The notes beneath the pieces are model-generated. The model was not told where the DNA came from and did no database searches. It saw only the letters and a list, made by a program, of their open reading frames with translations. The translations under genes and the position numbers were made by a program. Shown here one piece after another: positions 6,069-41,514 of a DNA stretch of 64,000 nucleotides (positions within the stretch are counted from its first letter, which is position 1; every line of letters begins with the position of its first letter). The stretch comes from Yuukianura sp. NJ FZ-2021 (lineage: Eukaryota). The stretch spans positions 1,922,001-1,986,000 of the forward strand of contig CM102286.1 of the NCBI GenBank assembly GCA_046563655.1, read 5' to 3'.

Positions 6069-6949
6069 GGTTGGAGAGTAGATCCGCAGTCTGTTTTTCT
6101 TAGTCGTTTTTTCGACATGGACATGCTCCATGATAACCGAAAAAATGACCTATACAAAAGTTGTTCCTCTTGAAAAGATAAGCAACTTTTACGGGAACCA
6201 TTTTTCTCTGTGACCTTTCCTTGAGGTCACAGGTCAAGGTCAAAAGGGGTGTTCCCTGACAACCCACAAAATGGTCCCTACAAAAGTTGTTCCTCTCCTC
6301 AAAAGCTACAACTTTCATTAAGACCATTTTCGTCTGTGACCCTTTCTTCGGGTCAAAGGTCAAGGTCAACTAAGAATCTCCTGACAATCGAAAAAATGAC
6401 CTCTACAAAAGTTGTTCAGCTCAATGAGTAGATCATTTTCTATCCTATGACCTATGGTCCTGTGACGGCTCCCTGAGGCTATAAGTTAGGTTTTTTTAAA
6501 CCTCGAATCCAGGAGACGTACCTTCACCTTGAGATGACACCTCAGGGAGTCGTCACAGGGTCATAGGTCATAGGGCAAAAAATGATCTACTCATTGAACT
6601 GAACAACTTTTGTAGAGGTCATTTTTTCGATTGTCAGGAGATTCTTAGTTGACCTTGACCTTTGACCCGAAGAAAGGGTCACAGACGAAAATGGTCTTAA
6701 TGAAAGTTGTAGCTTTTGAGGAGAGGAACAACTTTTGTAGGGACCATTTTGTGGGTTGTCAGGGAACACCCCTTTTGACCTTGACCTGTGGCCTCAAGGA
6801 AAGGTCACAGAGAAAAATGGTTCCCGTAAAAGTTGCTTATCTTTTCAAGAGGAACAACTTTTGTATAGGTCATTTTTTCGGTTATCATGGAGCATGTCCA
6901 TGTCGAAAAAACGACTAAGAAAAACAGACTGCGGATCTACTCTCCAACC
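6069..6949. mobile_element. 881-bp foldback-type non-autonomous DNA transposon with about 410-bp TIRs and an 8-bp TSD (Merlin- or Mutator/foldback-like)
   Basis: Arms 6069-6478 and 6540-6949 are near-perfect reverse complements with GG...CC termini. CGTTTTTT flanks it at 6061-6068 and 6950-6957. The paralogous site near 12560-12580 is empty. Confidence 0.9.
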
Positions 6950-7436
6950 CGTTTTTTTCAAATTTTGTGCCTGGGTGGTTTGGGTGCCTTAGTTGGCAAA
7001 GGTATCCTTTTGAATTACCCAGTTCAGGAGCAAAATAAAATAAGGAAGCGGAAAACAAAACAAACAACAAAACGGAAACGATTACCTAACCAAGTTCCAG
7101 CTTCCAGCGTTTGATTTAGATTAATTGTAATTGTCATTTGAAGCCTAGAAACTGTCATCGTCATAGGTCACTCTGTTTTATTTCTCGCTGCTCGCGTCGC
7201 AGCGTCATTTGTAAGTTACTTCACTTTTTCACTTTTCCTCATTTTAACATTCGCTTGGTTCATCAATTTGCTGTGTATGTTTGTAATTTGGCAGGAATGT
7301 CGGAGACTTAACACACAATGGATTGGTTTTTGCTGTAAAGTGATTGTGATACGCTGATGAGCTTAAAGTGATTAATTATTCAACTGGGAGGAGCAATTAA
7401 ACAAGAATCGAACACTCATAGTGGCCAGATATCATA

Positions 7437-10400
7437 ATGAACACTACACTAATGAATGGGGGCAATGGTGCTTCCGGAGGTTCGGGAGCGAAGGTTTCAG
7501 TGGCAGTGCGAGTTCGACCACTAATTGAAAGAGAAACTAAACAGAAAAAGGGTAATTCCTGATGTATAAATTGTGGTTATGAATTTAACAGGTTGGCGAT
7601 AAATTATGGTTTATGTGTGCATTAGGTTCAGGAACCAATTGGGTGGTGGACCAAAATTTTATTCAGCCGGCATCTCCCAAGACCGATGAAGCTTTGCCCG
7701 GTGTAGAGCGGTATATGTTTGACCATGTGTTTTCAATGGAGGACGATACAAAGGAAGTTTATAACACCGTAGTTTCGCCCATTGTTGACCAAGCCTTTAG
7801 TGGTTTCAATGGTACAGTTCTCTGCTATGGACAAACTTCATCTGGTAACTTATGATATCTTGTAAACTTTTTCAGTATTTAAACTTTCTAACATTATTTT
7901 AACTTTTAGGGAAAACGTTTACTTTGTACGGCAGTGAAAGGGAGAATGGTATCCTATCTCTTACCGCCCGACACTTGTTCAAACGTATTTCTGAAGACAA
8001 GAACAGAACGTACATAGTCCTGTGAGTTTCGGCCTTTCGCCTTGAGTAATTGTTTTCTGGACTTTTCTGAATATCGTTTTCAATTGTTGTTACAGGCTAA
8101 GTCTAATTGAAATCTACAACGAGAAGGTTTCGGATCTTCTCAACGCTCAGAAGGAAATTCCCATTGTAGAATATTATGGACGCATTATGCTGAAGGAACT
8201 GGAACAGATTGAAATTCGTAAACCCGAAGGCATGCTGGCAGCGATGCAGCAAGTTCAGAAACGTCGTAGGGTTGGAGAAACTCGAATGAACCAAGACAGT
8301 TCCAGGTCTCACACTATCATGAGAATTCTGCTGGAAAGTGTCCCCAAAGCGGAGGAAATCCAAGAAAATGTCAAAGTCACTGTCACCACTGCTCTGCTCA
8401 ACTTCGTTGATCTCGCTGGATCTGAGAAAGTGTCACAAACGTGTGCCGTTGGAGAACGGTTCAAAGAAGCAACGCACATCAACCGATCATTATCCGTTCT
8501 TTCTCAAGTTGTGATGCAACTGAGTCAAGATGAGCCCATTACTACCAGTGGAAGTCATTTACCATCGACTGTTACCCCTGGTATGTCAAAAGTTGGAAGT
8601 TTAATTACTAATTCTTCCAACTCAACCACTAAGAAGACTGCAAGCAAGTACGTCAACTACCGAGATAGTAAGCTCACCAGGATACTTCAGAGTTCTTTGA
8701 GCGGCAATGCCTATATTGCAATGATTTGTACCGTAACGCCTGCGAGTATCGAGGAAACTATTTCTACGCTTCGGTAAGCTATGGACTTAATAATTTTGTT
8801 CTACTTCCTCATCTTAGAATGCAGATCAGCTGATCTCGAAAACTGAAATGTTGAAATGCTTAATCTTTTTGAAAAATGCTTGCAGATTTGCGAGAACTGC
8901 GAAGAAGATTCAGACGAAACCGAAGGCGAACCACAAACTCGCGTCTGATTGTGAATATCAACAAAAAATGTTGAATCTTCAACAAACCTTGGATGTAAAT
9001 CATCTCACTGTCTTTAAAACTCAGTAACTTTAAGTTTAATTAACTTTAATAATTCTGTTTTGTACCTCTTTTCAGAGTACAACGTATGAACTCCAAAGTA
9101 AGACGAATGAAGTGGATGATCTGCAAAATCAAACCACCCTGCCATATCTTTCTTTACTAGAAAAATCAATTACGGAGGAAGATATATTCCAAATACCGAA
9201 CAAATCACCACCACTGTCCAAGAAGCGAAGTTCTCGTGGTGAAATTTCATCTCCATTTCAAAGTGAAAGTAAGTGAAATCTTTGATTTTTGAATATCTGG
9301 AGTACTTTTTTTTTATACTGGCAACTTTCGGTTGTACTTGTTACTTCCGTTACTTGAATTTAATTACTTCACTTTGTAAACTTGTTTTGAATCTGTAGCG
9401 TTCATGACAGATGAACAAGCAAGGAATCTCTTGGACAATGGTGAAAGGACACGTTTAGAAGAATTTACTTGTCCTTCGGTGATGAAGAAACCGAAGTACA
9501 TTGAGACGGGCGACGCCGAATCACAAAATGACCCAGTACCACCATACATGTAAATACTAAAAAATTAAAAAAAAATTCGGAACAGTGTTTCTGAAATAGA
9601 TTTGTTGTGTGATTTTAGACCAGAAGCAAAGCGAATTCACCTAGAAGCAACTCATCCGCCAGGGACTCCTCCCAGTGTACTTCGGTTGCAACGTTCTCAC
9701 TTACGTTTAGCTTGCGAGGAAGAAGTTCAGGAGAAGGCAGAATTGAAGGCGTTCCATTACAATGTAATTGACGTCCTACATCAACAAGTTTCATTTTTGG
9801 AGGATGCTCTCGCCACTTCTGAGGCGAAGTGCAAGGAAATGCAAGAAATTTTTGAAATGTCCAGCGACGGAAACTTCTCTGCCCTTCTGACTGAGCTGAA
9901 AAATTCCATTAACTGTGAAACTCAAATGCATAAACTTTCCGACTCATCAACAACAACCGAAGTCGTTGAAAAATTGGATTTTGGCGCCACTGCAGGAACT
10001 TCACTGGTAAATATCCGTCATACGTGGACAGAAACTGAAGTTACTAAAATTGCCACTCATGACTTTGGAGCAATGGTGTTCATCCCGCCAATAACATGTG
10101 AAGCTTCAACGGAAACAGAAACAACATCATCAGTAGCATCAGCAGTAGAAGTTCACGAAATGGCCATTGAAACCTCAGTTTTTGAAACTAAGAAGGAAAA
10201 TATCCGGGTCGAAACAGCTGATTGTGGAGTAATGGCACGAGTTCCAATGCACGGAGTTGCTGATACTACGACCGAAATGGAATTCGTTGCGGAACCGGAA
10301 GTCCTGACTGAGCTAAAAAATTCAATTGACGGTGAAACTCAAATGCATAAACTTTCCGACTCATCAACAACAACCGAAGTCGTTGAAAAATTGGATTTTG

Positions 10401-10837
10401 GCGCCACTGCAGGAACTTCACTGGTAAATATCCGTCATACGTGGACAGAAACTGAAGTTACTAAAATTGCCACTCATGACTTTGGAGCAATGGTGTTCAT
10501 CCCGCCAATAACATGTGAAGCTTCAACGGAAACAGAAACAACATCATCAGTAGCATCAGCAGTAGAAGTTCACGAAATGGCCATTGAAACCTCAGTTTTT
10601 GAAACTAAGAAGGAAAATATCCGGGTCGAAACAGCTGATTGTGGAGTAATGGCACGAGTTCCAATGCACGGAGTTGCTGATACTACGACCGAAATGGAAT
10701 TCGTTGCGGAACCGGAAGTCCTGACTGAGCTAAAAAATTCAATTGACGGTGAAACTCAAGAGGCTTCTATTGAAGCTGAAGAATCTGAAAAGGCGAGTAG
10801 GCGAGGAGAAACCAGAACAGTTACGCCTGGTTTATAG
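7437..10837 (+). CDS. CENP-E-like kinesin-7, copy 1 (derived, tail lost; may splice on to C2H2 exons ending at 11763)
   Basis: Exons 7437-7551, 7626-7844, 7910-8021, 8096-8773, 8886-8994, 9075-9269, 9399-9549 and 9619 onward. Motifs VAVRVRP, GQTSSGKT, NQDSSRSH, DLAGSE and NYRDSKLTRILQ. The frame stays open to a TAG at 10835-10837 inside a MITE. Confidence 0.85.
9926..10759 (+). repeat. Essentially perfect 417-bp (139-aa) in-frame tandem duplication in kinesin copy 1
   Basis: ATGCATAAACTTTCCGAC starts at 9926 and 10343, and GAAACTCAA ends at 10342 and 10759. The two translated units are identical. Confidence 0.92.
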
Positions 10838-11205
10838 TCTCACTCTTCACTTCATGCTCACTTCGCTGTTATGTCGCTTTCACTATCACTTTTCATGCGA
10901 GTGAACTATAAATTAGGCATACAGTTTCATTACAACATCACTTCACCTTCATTTTCACTCCGTCGTCACTTTGAGAAAAGTTGACTCCGGTTCAACTTTG
11001 AAAAAGTGAAGGAAAAGTGACGACGAAGTGATACGAAAGTGAAACTCAAAATAGGCAGCGAGTAAAAGAGGAAGTGAAGACGAAACCAAAAGTGAGACAG
11101 GGATGATCATGTCCTCATCACTTCCGACTCTAAATACGACAAAGTGACGGAGGAAGTGAAGTTCAGCACAAAAGTGAAGTGAAAAGTGAGACTATAAACC
11201 AGGCG
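10824..11205. mobile_element. 382-bp MITE with TTA TSD (PIF/Harbinger-Tourist-like)
   Basis: TIR CGCCTGGTTTATAGTCTCACT...AGTGAGACTATAAACCAGGCG, with TTA at 10821-10823 and 11206-11208. Confidence 0.88.
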
Positions 11206-11292
11206 TTAGACAAAAAATAGTGTTAAGTATAAACAAAACATAAATGTAGGAAGGAAACGACATAGTAGTTTGATTTTGTTGTATTTTTTTAG

Positions 11293-11763
11293 ACTGGAGT
11301 ACAACCGGATTCTGTAAAAATCTCCAACCCAAACCAATTTGCGACATTTGCTGATTACCAAACTTTTAATCAAAATTTGAGTTACACCAAAGGAATTAAC
11401 CTCGCGGCAAATGTGAAGTTGGCTTGCTGCGTTTGTCCTGTAAGTGAATTCGCCTACAAACACTAAACGATTTTTAATGGTTTGGGTAATTTGTTGACGT
11501 TGTTGTTATTTTAACAGGCGCAACCAAACGGGCAATTCATCATCTACGCCCAGGGATCGTTCTTGAACCACTACAATTCTCATCATTCTCCTAAGGCGAA
11601 GTGTTTCATGTGCCCATTTTGTGCGGAGCAAAGGAGTTTGAGTTCGAAACGCAATTTCAGAGTCCACATCCTTTCGAAACATCGTCATTTGTTGCACACT
11701 CCCGAAGATTGCAAAAAGTTGGAGGATTTGGGATACAGTTTGGAAGACTTCATCACACACTAA
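11293..11763 (+). CDS. Two spliced phase-0 exons (11293-11439, 11518-11763) encoding two C2H2 zinc fingers; no start codon of their own
   Basis: TGVQPDSV...KLACCVCP|AQPNGQFIYAQGSFLNHYNSHHSPKAKCFMCPFCAEQRSLSSKRNFRVHILSKH...DFITH*. Acceptor ttttttag, donor CCT|gtaagt, acceptor ttaacag. Confidence 0.75.
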
Positions 11764-11925
11764 TGGTGATGACCCGAGTTGAGCAAGGTATTACAGTAAG
11801 GTACCAATTTTGGAAACTCCTCTGATTGGCTCCTTCTCATCTCACTCCTCCCACGATTACCGTAAAATTTCTTGTAATGTGCAAAACTGTTACGTAAAAA
11901 GTGTTGGCTTGTTTAACGAGTTTAT

Positions 11926-12325
11926 TTAGGTGAACAAAGCTTTAATTAGCATTTTACACTTCTTAAAACAATTAGCAACTGTAGCAGATTCAATTTCTTC
12001 CCAGGACTCACAAATCATTTCTATACCATTTCTAATTAATAGAAGTGGGAGCTTTCGAAGACCAGCTGAGCCTTTTTTTGATAAAAACTCAAACACTTAG
12101 GTGCCAGAAACCTTGGTCTAGTTCCAATTCAGATAAAATTTAGTCCAATTAATTTACCTTTGCGTTTCCATTGAAACTTATAATTCGGTTTTCTTGCTGG
12201 AATATTTTGCTCACTGTTGCTTTTGTAATTGAATATTGAGCACAGATGTCTTTTCTTGTAGAATTGGTTAACTGTGATAGAATTTTTCGTTTCGTTTCTA
12301 AAGTAAGGAACTTCGACTTTAGCAT
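11926..12325 (-). pseudogene. Internally deleted pogo/Tigger (CENP-B-family) transposase relic
   Basis: MLKSKFLTLETKRKIL...TRKDICAQYSITKATVSKIFQQENRI resembles the HTH_psq/CENP-B N-terminal domain. After stops, it is followed by NGIEMICESWEEIESATVANCFKKC, which resembles the post-DDE motif (W..V...TI.NCF.K). The DDE core is absent. Confidence 0.7.
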
Positions 12326-13103
12326 CGTTAAAGAATAGCCATATAACTAACGATTAACTGTAACTAATTAATAATAAAGAATACCGGGACTACACCTTTA
12401 TCACATGTAAGCAAAAGATTTGTCAACTGTTGGACGCTTACTTGCAAACCAATGTCAATCAATTAAAAACTAATTTAACTTAATTAATCATATACTCAAA
12501 ATTAATGTTGCTGCTAATTTTCGCAACACCAAAAAATAAACTGACTTTGAAATTTATCGCTAAACGTTCATCTTTTCAAATTTTGTGCCTGGGTGGTTTG
12601 GGTGCCTTAGTTCTGGCAAAGGTATATTTTTGAATTACCTATTTCGGGAAGGGAACAAAATCAAAACAACGGAAAACAAAGCAAACAAGAAGAAGGAGAA
12701 CAAATCGGAAATTCGGAAACCATTTAAGTACTACCATGTACTAAACCATGTTCCAGCGTTTTGAGAATTGTATTGTAATTTGAAGAAGCCTAGAAACTCA
12801 TCTGTTCAGGTCATAGGTCACTCTGTCAAGTTCTTGTTACTCGTATTATCATTTATATTTGTAAGTTAGTAATTCATTTTTTGCCCCATTTTAACATTCG
12901 CCCATTCGCCGGGTTCATCAATTTGTTGTTTGTGTTTATGTTTGTAATTTGGCAGGATAATGTTGGCGACTTATCACACAATGAATTGGTTTTTGCTGTA
13001 AAGTGATTGTGCTACTCTGATGAACTTCACAGGCGCTAAGTTATCCAACTGAGGAACGAACAACTAAACAAGAATCGAACACTCATAGTGGCCAGACATC
13101 AAA

Positions 13104-16100
13104 ATGAACACTTCACTGATGAATGGGGGCAATGGTGCTTCCGGAGGTGCGGAAGCGAAGGTTTCAGTGGCAGTGCGAGTTCGACCACTAATTGAAAGAG
13201 AAACTAAACAGAAAGAGGGTAAGTGTTCCAACTGTGAGGTATAAATTGTGGTTATGCATGTGACAGGTTGGAGATAAATTGGATAAATTCTGATTTGTGT
13301 GCACTAGGCGCCGGAATCAATTGGGTGGTGGACCAAAATTTTATTCAGCAGGCTTCGCCCAATACCGATGAAGCTTTGCCTGGTGTAATGCCGTATATGT
13401 TTGACCATGTGTTTTCAATGGAGGACGATACAAAGGAAGTTTACAACACCGTAGTTTCGCCCATTGTTGACCAAGCTTTCAGTGGTTTCAACGGCACTGT
13501 TCTCTGCTATGGACAAACTTCATCCGGTAAGTATTGATCTCATTTGTAAATTGTTTTTAGTTTTTTTTTACTTTTTCATTTTAACTTTTAGGGAAAACTT
13601 TCACTTTGTACGGCAGTGAACGTGAAAACGGTATCCTGTCTCTCACTGCCCGACACTTGTTCAAACGTATTTCTGAGGATAAGGACAGAACGTACATGGT
13701 CCGGTGAGTTTGTCTTTTCGGCTTGAATAACTTTTTTCCTGGACTTTTCTGGATTTCTTAACATTTTTCTTTCACTTTTGGATTTTATTCCTTCAGGCTA
13801 GGTCTAATTGAAATCTACAACGAGAAGGTTTCGGATCTTCTCAGCGCTCAGCAGAAGGAAATCGCCATTGTAGAAATAAATGGATGCATTGTGCCAAAGG
13901 AGCTGGAGGAGATTGAAATTTTTAAACCCGAAGACATGCTGGCAGCGATGCAGCAAGTTCAGAAACGTCGTAGGGTTGGAGAAACTCGAATGAACCAAGA
14001 CAGTTCCAGGTCTCACACCATCATGAGAATTTTGCTTGAAAGTGTCCCCAAAGCGGAGGAAATCCAAGAAAACGTCAAAGTCACCGTCACCACGGCTCTT
14101 CTCAACTTCGTTGATCTCGCTGGCTCTGAGAAAGTGTCACAAACGTGTGCCGTTGGAGAACGTTTCAAGGAAGCAACACACATCAACCGATCGTTGTCTG
14201 TTCTTTCTCAAGTTGTGATGCAATTGAGTCAAGATGAGCCTACTACAACCAGTGGAAGTCATTTACCATCGAGTGTTACCCCTGGTATGTCAAAAGTTGG
14301 TAGTTCAATTACTAACTCTTCCAACTCTACCACCAAGAAGACTACTAGCAAGTACGTCAACTACCGAGATAGTAAGCTCACCAGGATACTTCAGAGTTCT
14401 TTGAGCGGCAATGCCTATATTGCAATGATTTGCACCGTAACGCCTGCGAGTATCGAGGAGACCATTTCTACGCTTCGGTAAGCTATGGACTAACTATTAT
14501 TGTTCTACGTCCTCATCTTAAACGCTTAGAATGCTGATCAGCTGATCTGGTAACGTGAAATCTGAAATGCTTAATTTTTTGAAAAATGCTTGCAGATTTG
14601 CGAGAACTGCGAAGAAGATTCAGACTAAACCGAAGGCCAACCATAAACTCGCGTCTGATTCTGAATATCAACAAAAAATACTGGATCTTCAACAAACCTT
14701 GGATGTAAATCATTCCATTTTCTTAGTATAATTTGTTTCATAATTTTAAATTTTGTTCTACTCTTTTCTCTTTTCAGAGTAAGACGTATGAACTCCAAAG
14801 CAAGACGAATGAAGTGGATGATCTGAAACGCCGTTTGGAGATTTTCATGAAATTCTCTGCTCATCCTAGAGTCCTAGAATCTCAGAATCCAAGTGGCCAA
14901 GCTGTGCCAACACTTGATGTAAGTTAGTGAACTACAACTAATGCTTTTTAAGCAATCGTTACATTTTATTCTATTTGTGTCACAGATGAGACGAAAAACG
15001 ATTTGCTCAAGCTTATTACCACGAAGAGACCAGATCACCTTACCCTGTCTTTCTTTACAATCAATTACGGAGGACGGGATATTCCAAATACCGAACAAAC
15101 CACCACCAATGTCCAAGAAACGAAGTTCTTGTGGTGATTTTTCATCTCCATTTCAAAGTGAAAGTAAGTGACATTTTTGTGATTTTTGAATATTTGAAGT
15201 ACTTTCTTTATACTGGCAACTTTCGGTTGTACTTGCTACTTGCGTTACTTGAATTTAATTACTTCACTTTGTAAACATGTTTTGAATCTGTAGAGTTCAT
15301 GACAGATGAACAAGCGAGGAATCTCTTGGATAAAGGTGAAAAGACACGTTTAGAAGAATTTACTTATTCTTCGGTGACGAAGAAACCGAAATTCATTGAG
15401 ACGGGTGACGCCGAATCACAGACTGATCCAGAGCCATACATGTAAATACTAGAAACGTTGAAAAAAAATTCTGAAAATGTGTTTCTGAAATGGATTTATT
15501 GTGTGATTTTAGACCAGAAGCAAAGCGACTGCGCCTGGAAACAACTCATCCGCCAGGGACTCCTCCAAGTGTACTTCGGTTGCAACGTTCTCACTTACGT
15601 TTAGCTTGCGAGGAAGAAATTCAGGAGAAGGCAGAATTGAAGGCGTTCCATTCCAGGGAAATTGACGTCCTACATCAACAAGTTTCAATTTTGGAGGAGG
15701 CTCTCGCCGCATCTGAGGCCAAGTGCAAGGAAATGCAAGAAATTTTTGAAATGTTCAGCGACGGAAACTTCTCTGCCCTTCTGACTGAGCTGAAAAATTC
15801 CATTGAGCGTGAAACTCAAGATGCTTCTACTGAAACTGAAGAAACTGAACAGGAGACTAGGCGAGTAGAAACTTCAGATTTTGAAGTGATGGTTGGAGTT
15901 CCGATGGACAGAATTGCTCATTCGTCAACAGAAACGGATTCTATCGAGCAGCGGGACTTTGGAGCCACTGTCGGAACTTCACTGGTAAACCTTCGTGATT
16001 CTTCGACCGAAACAACGAAAGTCGAAAAGCAAGATTTTGGAGCCATGGCGTTCGTGCCACCTCTAACAACAGAAACTTCAACGGAAACAGATCTTGAAAT

Positions 16101-18584
16101 TCCTGAAGTTGTGAAGTCAGTAGAAGTTCGTGAAGCTTCTACAGATACGGAATGCCTTGAAGTGGAAATAGAATGCAAAAGAAGTCGTGTTGAGACCACT
16201 GATTGCGGAATTATGGTTGGAATTCCAATGCATAAACTTGCCGACTCATCCACAGCAACGGAATCAGTTGAACTGCGGGACTTTGGCGCCACTGCTGGAA
16301 CTTCTCTAGTAAACATCCGTGACTCTTGGACAGAACCTCAAGTTACTAAAATTACCACTCAAGACTTTGGAGCAATGGTGTACATCCCGCCAATGACATG
16401 TGAAGCTTCAACGGAAACAGAAACAGCATCATCAGTACCATCAGCAGTAGAAGTTCATGAAGTGGCCACTGAAACAGGAATTTTTGAAATTGAAAAGGAA
16501 AGTATCCGGGTCCAGACAGCTGATTGTGGAGTAATGGCGGGAGTTCCGATGTTTGGACTTGCTGATGCTACGACCGAAACGGAATTCGTTGCTGAACCGG
16601 AAGTCCGACCCGAAACAACGGAACGAGGAGTAATGGCTGGTGTTGGCATGGACAGATTCTGCGACTCGTCAACTGGAACAGAACTGGTTGAGCAGCGAGA
16701 CTTTGGAGCTACTGCTGGAGCTTCACTAATAAATGTCTGTGACTCGTGGACAGAAACTGCCAAAATTGAAACTCAAGAAGTTGGAATACTGGCAGTAGCT
16801 TCAACTGCTGACGTTTCAACAGAAACTGCCACAATTCTAACTCAAGAAATGGGAATGTTGGCGGTAGCTACGACTTCTGAATCTTGGACGGAAACGACCA
16901 AGGTTGAAACTAAAGATTTTGGAGTAACGGCACTGATTTTGCCCTCAACTTGTGAAACTTCAACGGAAACTAAAGTTCAAAGTCGAGATTCTGGAGTAAT
17001 GGCAGTGACAGAAACTTCTGAATGTTCAACAGAAACAATCCGGGTTGAAACTAAACATTCTGCCAGCATGACCACTACTGTCCGAACTTGCGACTCTTCG
17101 ACAGCAACTGTTCCTGTGGAAGCAGTTAAAGTACGTGAGGCGTCTACAGAAACTACGTTTACTGAAGCAGGTCAAGGTCAAGGTCACTCTAGCACAACTG
17201 CTACAGCTACACAAGCTCAAGCTCCGCGGAGAACTGTAAACAGAGATGCTCAAACGATGGACGACAGTGACTACAACAGTAACACAGTTTAACATTTGTG
17301 TTTTTTTTCAAAGACTTTTTAACATAACTTTTTCAAAATTTGAAGGCACTAAACATGAATTTTTTTTTCAAATTTTCATTTCAGCTCTGGTGAAATCTTG
17401 TCACAACGAACGCCTCAAACGGAAAACGTTACAGGCAGCAATGGGCTCCGCTGCGCGAAAGTTCGATGCCAAGTTGGAAGTTGAGAAGAAGCGAATTGCT
17501 GAGTTGGAGAGACAAATGGTCCTGAAAGAATCGGAGGTAAGTTGTTATGTAATTTTTTCGTAAAACTGAAATTGTACTTCGTTAATCGATCAATTTCTCA
17601 CAAGAAAGGGTTTTGAATTTTCAGAAGGAGAATTTACAACTTCAAATTACTGTGATCGAAAAGAATTACCGAGAACAGAAGCCCAAGGTAAACAAACATA
17701 ACTTAGAACTGAGAGTAAACAGAACATAATTGAATTTAATGGGAAATCTTTATGTTTTGAATAGAGTTCAAAGGAAATTCAGTGCGATGTTATGAAAGGT
17801 CAACTGGAAAAAGCTATGCAAGGAACAACAGGCATGTTACCTGAAGGTTATCCTAAGGTGGATCAAATGGCCTCTGAAATTAGCTCACTTAAGCGAGAAT
17901 TGTACGTTTCTGCGCTGGATAGACAAAAGAAAGCGAAAGAAGAAGAAGCCATGATGAGACAAATGTAAGAAAAGTTTAAATTGCAGTAATTTTCAAGATG
18001 ATTTTCAAATTGAACTTTTTGGATGTTAATTTGGATGCTTTTTTTGAACTTATTAGTGGGCATGGGCAAAATAATGGACAACAATTTTTCAAAAAACCGG
18101 ATCTGTTGATAGAAAAGGAGGCAGAAGAGAAGTCAAAAGCGAGAGCGGCGTATGTTGAAGACGTTAATTGCAAAGTTAAAAGTGTTAATGATCAATTAAG
18201 TTTAATTTTGATTTGATTTTTGATTCTAGGAGTCTTAATGTCACTGAGAGGAGAGTTTTACGTTCAACTACCAGAGCCACTCGTTCCATCCTGGCACCTT
18301 CCTCTGAAAGTCGTTTGAATGAACCGCCATTGGTGTTTGCTTCTTCATCGTCATCTTCTTCTGACATTACAAAACAAAACACATTTGGTCCAGACAATCA
18401 TCTCGTAGAACCACCCGCTAAACTACAAAAGAAAACTTATACAAAAGTGGAAGACGTGTCAAAAATGGACGCTTCAAATGCTGCGAGGCCCGTGAAACCA
18501 GTAAGCTTAACATCGTTTAGCGGAAGTGGACGTCCTGGGCCCAAGTTGCCCAGCGATTATGAAAAACTGTTTGAAGATTTCTAA
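13104..18584 (+). CDS. CENP-E-like kinesin-7, copy 2 (full length): motor, short coiled coil, Thr/Glu-rich repeat exon, coiled coil and basic Ser-rich tail
   Basis: Same motor motifs as copy 1. About 14 exons (13104-13218, 13308-13526, 13592-13703, 13797-14477, 14596-14704, 14778-14918, 14986-15163, 15293-15441, 15512 to about 17266, 17385-17536, 17625-17687, 17765-17964, 18057-18149, 18230-18584). Some boundaries are approximate. Confidence 0.85.
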
Positions 18585-39262: not shown

Positions 39263-41514
39263 TTATGCGTCGTCTGTGACCTTCTTTTTCGGAGCTATGC
39301 GACCTTTGCCTCCGTGCATTTTTGACATCATGTGTTGATTTAGGTAGTCCTTCAGCTTGAATACTTTCCCACACAGCCTACACTCATGACGTTCCTTTGC
39401 GTAAGGACCCGTGGTAGGCCTGACTCCATGCTTAGCAACCAAATGTCGTTGAAGTGCCATAGCTTCGAAGAAACTGTCGCCGCAGTAGGTGCACAGTTTG
39501 GATTTTACGCCAGAATGCTTCAGAATGTGACTCCGCAAACTTTTCGCATCCAAGTAGGCCTTACTGCAAACATTACACTCAAAACTTCTCTGTCTTGTCT
39601 TATCGTGTGTCTTTACATGTTTCTTTAGTTCACTCTTGGTTGCGCATGCTTTACCACAAGTTTCACAAATGACGTCCCGGATTCCGTCGTGTACTGTTTT
39701 AATATGAAATTGCAATACATTCTTGCCACGTAGTAATTTGCCGCAAAACTCACAAGGATAACGCTCATCTGTATGACGCTGTCGGCGATGAGTGGTGAGA
39801 TAATTCAAGGTTGGAAACTTCCTTCCGCAACCTTCCACTTCACATTGAAACGGGTTCGCAATATTGTGAGCCGAATTTTGATGCAATCTGAGGTGGCTTC
39901 TCGTCTCAAAAGTTTTGTGACAAACGGGACAACTACGACCTTCCATGTCTTTAGCGGTTAATCCATGACCGTGCTGGTATTTCAAATGCCTCCGTTGTCT
40001 CGCGCGTTGGGCAAAAATTTTTCCACATTGTTCGCATTTAAAACTTGGTTTTTCACGGTGAACGCACATCATGTGTTGCCTGAAGTTCGCTTCTGAAGAA
40101 AACGGAGTTTCACCACAGTCGTGAGGACAAACCAGCGGTTCCATTGTTATGGATGATTGAAGAGAATTTTGTTTTTGTTGAATTTTGTTTGTTGTGTTGA
40201 ATTTTTGTGCAGATTCGTCATCCTCATCAGACACGGACGGATGCTCTGTAATTAAACAATTGGAAGTTGGAGATTCAAGACTGATGCTACTGTCCTGAAC
40301 GCGGAAAATGTCAGGTTGCATTTCTTGCTGGATAATTTTTGTATTGTGTGATGTTGAATTGCAGAAAATGCTCGGTTGCGTTTCTTGCTGGATAACTTTT
40401 GTACTGTGTGATGTTGATGTTGAATTGCAGAAAATGCTAGGTTGCACTTTTTGCTGGATAACCTTTGTACTGTGTGATGTTGAATTGCAGAAAATGCTAG
40501 GTTGCACTTTTTCCTGGATAACTTTTGTACTGTGTGATGTTGAATTGCGGAAAATACCAGGTTGCATTTCTTGCTGGATAACTTTTGTACTGTGTGATGT
40601 TGAATTGCAGAAAATGGTAGGTTGCATTTTTTGCTGGATAACTTTTGCATTGTGGGATGTTGAATTGCGGAAAGTGCCAGGTGACATTTTTTGCTGGACA
40701 ACTTTTGTGCTGTCTGATGTTGGATTGCTTGAGACTCGCATGGGAGCGGGTAGTATTTTCCTGAACTGCTTGACAGTATTTTGCTTCACATCTAAACAAA
40801 GTTGTTCAAATTTTGTATTAGAACGCTTTACTTGCAATGTTTGGGCCCAAAGTATAAATAATAACAAATAATAACCTTTTGATTTGCTCGCTTTCATTTT
40901 TCGTGTTGAATTACGGAGAAGTACTTCGCCTTCGGCTTCGGTTGATAGCGGGTCCTGGTCAATGGCAAAAAATGGATCTTGTTCTTGAATTATGGAAAAG
41001 TTGTCTTCAACTTCAACTGATTCCAACTTCACTTCTACTTCTGGTGTTACCCCATCGTCTTCGAAAGGCTCGTAATCAGAATTCGTTACAGAGGACGACC
41101 AGAGAATGGAACTCTCCAGCAGCGTCTGAACGTATGAGCCCTCGACAGTTAGTTTCATAAATTTTTTGTAACTTGAATTCAGAGTAGTTAGTGTCGACAA
41201 GCATTGGAAGCACATCAGCAATCGACAATCGGGTGGCACTGTCTTCTAAAAAAATACAAAACTGATTTTAACAAAATCAAAAATCAAGTCATTTGACTTG
41301 TGATGCTTACTTTGTGCAACTTGAGACTTGCTTCAAATACTGTAGAAATTGCATCCGAAATGGCAACATCTTGGATGCTTTCTTTCTGTCCGACGCATGC
41401 CTCCTCACTTTCGGAGTTACGAACCAAAACTGTATTACAATGGTCTCCGCCATTGATATTCCCATCTTCATCAGGCAGTGCAGTCAACACCCGTCTGCAG
41501 TTAGCACAAGGCAT
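39263..41514 (-). CDS. C2H2 zinc-finger transcription factor with N-terminal ZAD-like cysteine pairs and about 9 fingers
   Basis: MPCANCRR...MCFQC, an acidic linker, 20-aa repeats, then a C2H2 array. Exons are about 41514-41311, 41245-40876 and 40791-39263. Confidence 0.88.
40304..40720 (-). repeat. About 7 copies of a 60-bp coding tandem repeat (STSHSTKVIQQKVQPSIFCN)
   Basis: Directly visible 60-bp periodicity; one unit has a 6-bp insertion. Confidence 0.92.

Follow-up and report, generated by a model that had tools for sequence, protein, structure and literature searches.

The question raised by this locus is whether the upstream member of a tandem pair of kinesin genes encodes a motor whose tail has been exchanged for C2H2 zinc fingers, as a preliminary description of the sequence proposed. 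The stretch of DNA analysed as a whole (64 kb, hereafter the window) is compact, intron-rich animal DNA with the two kinesin genes in tandem on the plus strand. Copy 2 (13119-18584, plus strand) is a full-length paralogue of 13 exons encoding approximately 1407 aa with a C-terminal coiled coil and tail. Copy 1 begins at 7452 and contains seven GT-AG introns; its exons 1-7 (7452-9549, plus strand; 7452-7551, 7626-7844, 7910-8021, 8096-8773, 8886-8994, 9076-9268 and 9399-9549) encode a kinesin-7 motor with intact P-loop, switch I and switch II, a neck coil and the start of the stalk, and the segment from exon 8 to the end of homology (9619-10812, plus strand) encodes a second coiled coil and acidic T/E-rich repeats that are rearranged in frame. 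Read straight through, copy 1 gives 926 aa and ends at a TAG inside a MITE. Homology to copy 2 was found to end at about 10812 (10721-10812 versus 15781-15872, 87%), in agreement with the preliminary description, and all coding length differences checked between the copies are multiples of 3. Copy 1 is on this comparison a springtail-type CENP-E gene that was duplicated only in part, with foreign finger exons joined on at about 10812, and no other single reading suits the locus as well as a putative chimeric kinesin-7/zinc-finger gene.

The identity of the motor was assessed using Pfam, the PDB and a quick tree. The Pfam Kinesin model matched exon 4 with an E value of 3.6e-52, and the motor motifs lie at residues 102, 212 and 249. 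CENP-E ranked first and second among the 93 PDB sequences matched by the motor, the best match being human CENP-E (1t5c; E 2e-38 versus 2e-29 for KIF15). In the tree (31 rows, of which 2 were outgroup rows) both copies grouped with three Orchesella dallaii proteins with an SH-aLRT of 100; these closest named relatives (CAL8105361.1, CAL8149245.1 and CAL8082265.1) are 46-48% identical over exon 4 and 48-51% over the motor, which makes a springtail the probable host. The CENP-E-like genes of O. dallaii lie on three contigs of unequal length and group apart from both copies here, which implies that CENP-E was duplicated independently in two springtail lineages.

Comparison of the motors across 382 codons yielded a dS of 0.222, a dN of 0.037 and a dN/dS of 0.167, a ratio that reaches at most 0.33 when copy 1 is charged with every amino-acid change and with half of dS (Fisher p 4e-4). 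Judged by these substitutions the copy 1 motor is under purifying selection, and the low ratio therefore led to the rejection of copy 1 as an old pseudogene; a reading of the two copies as alleles was also set aside, a dS of 0.22 being in our judgement too large. Copy 1 is the faster-evolving copy, having taken 9 of the 11 motor changes that could be polarised (p 0.065; 16 further changes were unpolarised), and its stalk is less constrained than its motor (0.71 and 0.51). A crude heptad scan predicts that it retains two coils (approximately 395-425 and 568-601); missing are exons 10-13 and the coil 1168-1219 of copy 2, and with them the C-terminal kinetochore-binding tail, so that by its domain content it is a kinesin-7 paralogue and not a full CENP-E.

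Several features of the stalks and of the upstream regions were recorded alongside. The stalk of copy 2 (15513-17278) consists of approximately 590 aa of T/E-rich repeats, unlike the long coiled coil of other CENP-Es, with motifs that we take to resemble sites for the dynein light chain LC8; an Atlas search with the stalk repeat unit of copy 1 returned nothing informative. Copy 1 contains two identical 417-nt units (9926-10759, plus strand, 0 mismatches) in frame, each with one in-frame GT donor (10007 and 10424), and this duplication is either very recent or a duplication made in assembly. The 39-nt block preceding it shows 4 differences from the two copies of that block further on, and an older rearrangement therefore came before the 417-nt duplication. 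A foldback element (6069-6949) with 410-nt arms (8 mismatches), an 8-bp target duplication and internal 126-nt repeats lies approximately 500 nt upstream of the copy 1 start codon and is absent from copy 2; it is a young insertion and may affect expression of copy 1 or of WDR74. A donor and an acceptor are conserved 5' of the ATG in both copies (7212-7294 and 12861-12957), which suggests a 5' UTR intron.

Downstream of the kinesin frame, the two phase-0 exons with a stop on the same strand were borne out. Finger exon 1 (11293-11439, plus strand) comprises 49 codons without a methionine and carries the Cys pair of finger 1, and finger exon 2 (11518-11763, plus strand) comprises 81 codons and a TAA and carries the His pair of finger 1, finger 2 and possibly a degenerate third finger; the exon ends are AG/GT, the 78-nt intron between them splits finger 1, and no methionine precedes finger 2. 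When the 390 finger bases were shuffled 20,000 times, only 9 of the shuffles lacked a stop, and the double C2H2 pattern was reproduced in 11 of 200,000 shuffles of the residues; on the strength of these counts the finger exons are considered real coding DNA and not a product of chance. Their codon score was +0.16 in frame, compared with -0.15 and -0.15 in the other two forward frames and +0.14 in one reverse-strand frame.

The nature of the fingers bears directly on what such a tail might do. Two C-x2-4-C...H-x3-5-H ligand sets with a hydrophobic core were found. A classical Krueppel-type C2H2 finger has a 12-residue spacer and a TGEKP-type linker; the spacers here are 18 and 14 residues, with long loops and no TGEKP-type linker. 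Exon 2 alone matched Pfam zf-Di19 (PF05605) with an E value of 5e-6 and 27.1 bits, just below the cut-off of 27.5, and scored 19.3 bits against zf-C2H2_4 (cut-off 27) and 16.7 bits against Spin-doc (cut-off 27.3); zf-BED gave no match at E values up to 1, and a BED origin is considered unlikely. Its PDB matches were weak (Tramtrack 2drp, E 0.021; KCMF1 chains, E 2-4), a single-sequence fold of exon 2 alone reached a pLDDT of 47.5 and was unusable, and the finger region has a net charge of +8. By their spacing and profile matches the fingers are an atypical, Di19-like pair. Di19-type pairs are known as protein-binding modules in ubiquitin ligases, and DNA binding by the pair here is plausible without being likelier than protein binding. 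Of the proposed replacement of the motor tail by DNA-binding fingers, the absence of the copy 2 tail stands, and the DNA tethering is something that we infer, given the Di19-like character of the pair and its missing TGEKP-type linker.

The searches for a source of the fingers returned a single database relative among 1.84 billion proteins, the multi-finger protein P0123 (E 4e-4, 30% identity). The C-terminus of the fusion aligns weakly with a third finger of P0123 but lacks the second Cys of that finger and stops early, which hints at a degenerate third finger. No finger homologue was found among 8 protein candidates of 143-2000 aa, the one locus retained from 545 metagenome candidates was a chance match without the finger motif, none of 28 viral candidates was confirmed, and the Atlas matches were generic small C2H2 proteins. 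Within the 64-kb window there is no second copy of the finger exons, and 11764-12440 holds no long frame that could be the coding remains of a flanking transposon. A multi-C2H2 gene on the minus strand (39263-41514) was compared as a possible parent and rejected; it carries an N-terminal Cys cluster and a tandem repeat of approximately 20 residues at 40301-40728. In 4,000 simulated runs of neutral decay, the splice sites, frame and eight ligands of the finger exons all stayed intact in 0.1% at 11% divergence, which is the divergence at the age of the duplication, in 1.4% at 6%, in 14% at 3% and in 35% at 1.5%. The junction is older than the MITE and otherwise undated, and the intactness of the fingers therefore favours their use only if the join is old.

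Donor sites were scored using a matrix built from 44 of the 54 modelled introns (10 doubtful ones were left out) together with the 12 introns of copy 2, gene models being confined to GT donors. These 56 local introns have a median length of 83 nt; 41 measure 60-100 nt, 47 are no longer than 135 nt, and just one is at least 400 nt (maximum 443). A GT donor at 10820 (10817-10825, plus strand, phase 0) would before the MITE have defined an 88-nt intron to the finger acceptor and would give a fusion of 1051 aa. It was weak, with a score of 2.4 bits undercut by just 2 of the 56 real local donors, and yet it outscored the other four of the 5 GT sites within 50-135 nt of the acceptor; a GT that lies out of frame at 159 nt exceeds it (5.5). 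The gene model, unprompted, ended exon 8 at 10819 and spliced GT 10820 to the fingers, although such a model rewards coding frames and its join is not independent evidence of splicing. GT 10820 is likely to be the original donor of the join, and since it is in frame (with a prior of 1 in 3) and its intron lies near the local median, the locus before the MITE was most likely spliced as a chimera.

The route to the fingers originally proposed is a GC donor (10790-10800, plus strand, phase 0, 8/11 U1 pairs), AAG|GCGAGT at 10792/10793, with an intron of 500 nt at present and 115 nt without the MITE. At the DNA level this proposal was upheld, as splicing to 11293 and on through the finger exons leaves a single stop-free frame of 1042 aa. 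It is not the sole route, however: four donors are in frame today, with GT 10007, GT 10424 and GT 10820 giving 780, 919 and 1051 aa, respectively. Read as GT, the GC site outscores 50 of the 56 real donors, and GC sites of this strength number 16 in 128 kb. It had been described as not present at this position in copy 2, which is true of the homologous position, but the same 10-mer occurs 8 nt further on (15861), equally strong, in phase 2 and inside modelled exon 9. The out-of-frame GC competitor at 10801 scores 6.8 bits in copy 1 versus 9.4 bits for its copy 2 counterpart. The large exons here contain many strong GT sites that seem to go unused, 5 of them in exon 9 of copy 2, and two further donors near the acceptor (11220 and 11227) were dismissed at -3.1 and 0.5 bits. 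The in-frame routes now available require introns of 473-1286 nt, and the 500-nt intron of the GC donor exceeds all 56 modelled local introns; GC-AG introns make up 0.45% of Drosophila introns in the figure given in PMC1557818.

Beyond the kinesin frame, neither AATAAA nor ATTAAA appears until 12373-12378 (plus strand), 3' of the finger exons; ahead of the fingers the weak variants TATAAA, AGTAAA and CATAAA are present at 5 places. Taken together, the conserved motor, the in-frame GT donor and the position of the poly(A) signal therefore strengthen the case for a chimera. Set against it are the rarity of GC-AG introns, the equally strong GC site of copy 2, the long introns now needed and the stop-retaining donors of the MITE, together with the weakness of the GT donor before the MITE, the undated junction, the faster evolution of copy 1 and the two young transposon insertions beside it.

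The MITE (10824-11205) has 32-nt arms at 97%, a TTA duplication (10821-23/11206-08), from which we take it to be of the Tourist/PIF type, and a hairpin z of -6.7. It was inserted at positions +2 to +4 of the GT donor at 10820, the score of which fell from 2.4 to -2.1 bits on insertion. The element contains the read-through stop (10835-10837) and three donors that would retain this stop, at 11092, 11186 and 11205; 11186 scores 5.1 bits with a 107-nt intron and 11092 has the same score with a 201-nt intron. In fold predictions the terminal inverted repeats form a duplex of -52 kcal/mol in which donors 11186 and 11205 are paired with probability 1.0, donor 11092 is only partly buried and the GC donor at 10793 is approximately 0.65 unpaired. 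The hairpin is thus predicted to hide the two MITE donors nearest to the acceptor, and its looping out would shorten the effective intron. In PMC11282704 the joining of intron ends by pairing of terminal inverted repeats is described solely for euglenid nonconventional introns.

Young chimeric genes can arise through partial duplication and exon capture, which attach the 3' exons of one gene, in frame, to the 5' part of a different one. The history proposed for this locus is of that kind. At about 10812 a partial CENP-E duplicate has been united with the final two exons of a zinc-finger gene unrelated to it, the 5' end of which lies outside the window. The join would have retained 7 foreign bases, along with a canonical donor that was in frame and had an intron of an ordinary 88 nt. 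The MITE would later have inserted in the GT donor at 10820. At present the element would fold back in the pre-mRNA, conceal two of its own three donors and loop out, and the GC donor, which precedes the old one by 27 nt (or GT 10424 or 10007), would be spliced to 11293. The product of approximately 780-1050 aa would comprise the motor, two short coiled coils, the acidic repeats and the finger pair, and would act as a dimeric plus-end motor without the CENP-E tail, with the fingers as its new cargo-binding end. Whether a kinesin-7/finger fusion is made now is regarded as close to an even matter, inclining slightly towards the negative. If it is, chromatin or DNA and a protein partner are held to be equally credible cargoes, each a little short of an even chance, with the absence of any cargo an unlikely third outcome. 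A fuller version, in which a CENP-E-type dimeric motor with a sequence-reading finger pair pulls selected sites on chromosomes along the spindle microtubules without involving the kinetochore, could bias segregation and was saved after the MITE by hairpin loop-out and the GC donor, is considered improbable, and a drive role of the fusion is speculation.

The most serious alternative is that the chimera once existed and has been silenced by the MITE. Having been spliced at 10820, copy 1 would now yield a tail-less motor of 926 aa with the fingers as 3' UTR, or an mRNA that is degraded, and the gene would be in early decay. The position of the MITE at +2 to +4 of the donor, with its loss of score, is what this account would predict, as are the clean 926-aa frame on read-through and the MITE donors 11186 and 11092, which lie nearer to the acceptor; a young foldback upstream of copy 1 agrees with it, and a recent loss would account for fingers that are still intact. 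However, the two nearest MITE donors are predicted to be fully paired, three strong donors, one GC and two GT, still offer an in-frame splice, and the GC site at 10801, which would compete out of frame, scores below its counterpart in copy 2. Silencing is thought possible but unlikely.

Somewhat less probable again is an origin without any chimera, in which a recent deletion or rearrangement set a truncated motor beside a headless zinc-finger relic and the in-frame donors are coincidental. The junction cannot be dated, one chance in three suffices for the frame and cryptic donors are common; moreover, the finger C-terminus, lacking the second Cys of the third finger by comparison with P0123 and stopping early, may reflect decay, and a relative with the same join was not found among the protein, metagenome and viral candidates. 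Coincidence would nevertheless have to place an in-frame GT-AG intron of typical length exactly between the breakpoint and the acceptor, leave no canonical poly(A) signal ahead of the fingers and preserve a finger codon use that fits coding DNA. Assignment of the finger exons to another transcript (MITE-initiated or trans-spliced), or of the junction to an assembly error, is regarded as improbable. The statement that the fingers have no start of their own nearly holds, the exception being an ATG inside the MITE (10871 or 10895) that is formally in frame with them through a donor at 10901; this donor is weak, pairing with U1 at just 5/11 positions, and the two genes modelled upstream both run along the minus strand. 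Assembly may have produced the 417-nt repeat, whose units show 0 mismatches; the copies of the gene differ at a dS of 0.22, which we consider too much for alleles. A chimeric gene thus stands as the best reading of what the preliminary description proposed, resting on the GT donor, the poly(A) position and the conserved motor, with the rarity of GC-AG introns, an intron beyond the local range and the stop-retaining MITE donors against it.

The putative fusion was compared with known systems. With CENP-E it shares the N-terminal motor, the best PDB match and the grouping with three O. dallaii proteins, and it differs in lacking the C-terminal coil and tail of copy 2. The C terminus of human CENP-E is reported to bind BubR1 and corona partners, and truncated constructs to be motile (PMC8905165). 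No zinc finger was detected by Pfam in the three O. dallaii CENP-E-like proteins scanned (3/3). Arabidopsis AT2G21380 (KISc-RING) likewise has a zinc-binding domain behind a kinesin-7 motor in the table of PMC2867816, although this domain is a RING and not a C2H2 finger, and its architecture is an old plant one as opposed to a young animal exon capture here. The sole C2H2 row among the 1,624 kinesins of that table, Takifugu SINFRUP00000154854 (4x(zf-C2H2)-KISc-BTB), is a Kinesin-14A with N-terminal fingers and the BTB behind, and its single gene model is possibly a merge of neighbours. The preliminary description knew of no kinesin-7/C2H2 fusion; in agreement with this, the table of PMC2867816 contains no such protein, and none was found in the literature searched, which was mostly open-access.

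Two analogies had been drawn for function. Chromokinesins are Kinesin-4/10 motors, with leucine-zipper or helix-hairpin-helix binding. If the fingers bind DNA, the fusion would share with Chromokinesin/KIF4, Kid/KIF22 and NOD a motor with a C-terminal DNA-binding part (PMC2120390, PMC13581288, PMC2200005), though DNA binding has been demonstrated there and is putative for the present fingers. Maize KINDR and TRKIN are, as described in PMC7462060, likewise lineage-specific kinesins acting on specific repeats; they belong to Kinesin-14, and how they recognise their repeats (knobs) is stated there to be unknown. Nothing at the present locus points to drive, and the analogy with Kindr found no support in it.

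If the fusion is made, it would place C2H2-type fingers at the end of a kinesin-7 motor from an animal, an architecture not found described in the literature searched, and would show a mitotic motor gaining a new targeting module in a case that is young and can be tested; a finger-bearing motor would also make the recognition of specific DNA by motors directly testable. Even if dead, the locus would preserve within 6.5 kb a three-step history of partial duplication, exon capture and insertion of a MITE into the joining donor.

The remaining modelled genes of the window (2597-63384) are presumed to encode a MOB-family protein, calmodulin, a proteasome alpha subunit, exostosin, BCKDHA, PP5, an ERR-type nuclear receptor and EEF1AKMT1. 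WDR74 was placed among these neighbours by database search, and a search with it for synteny gave no named springtail match among 12. Between 23000 and 31000 the GC skew of the window stays steadily positive (up to 0.33 per kb), and its AT skew is mostly negative.
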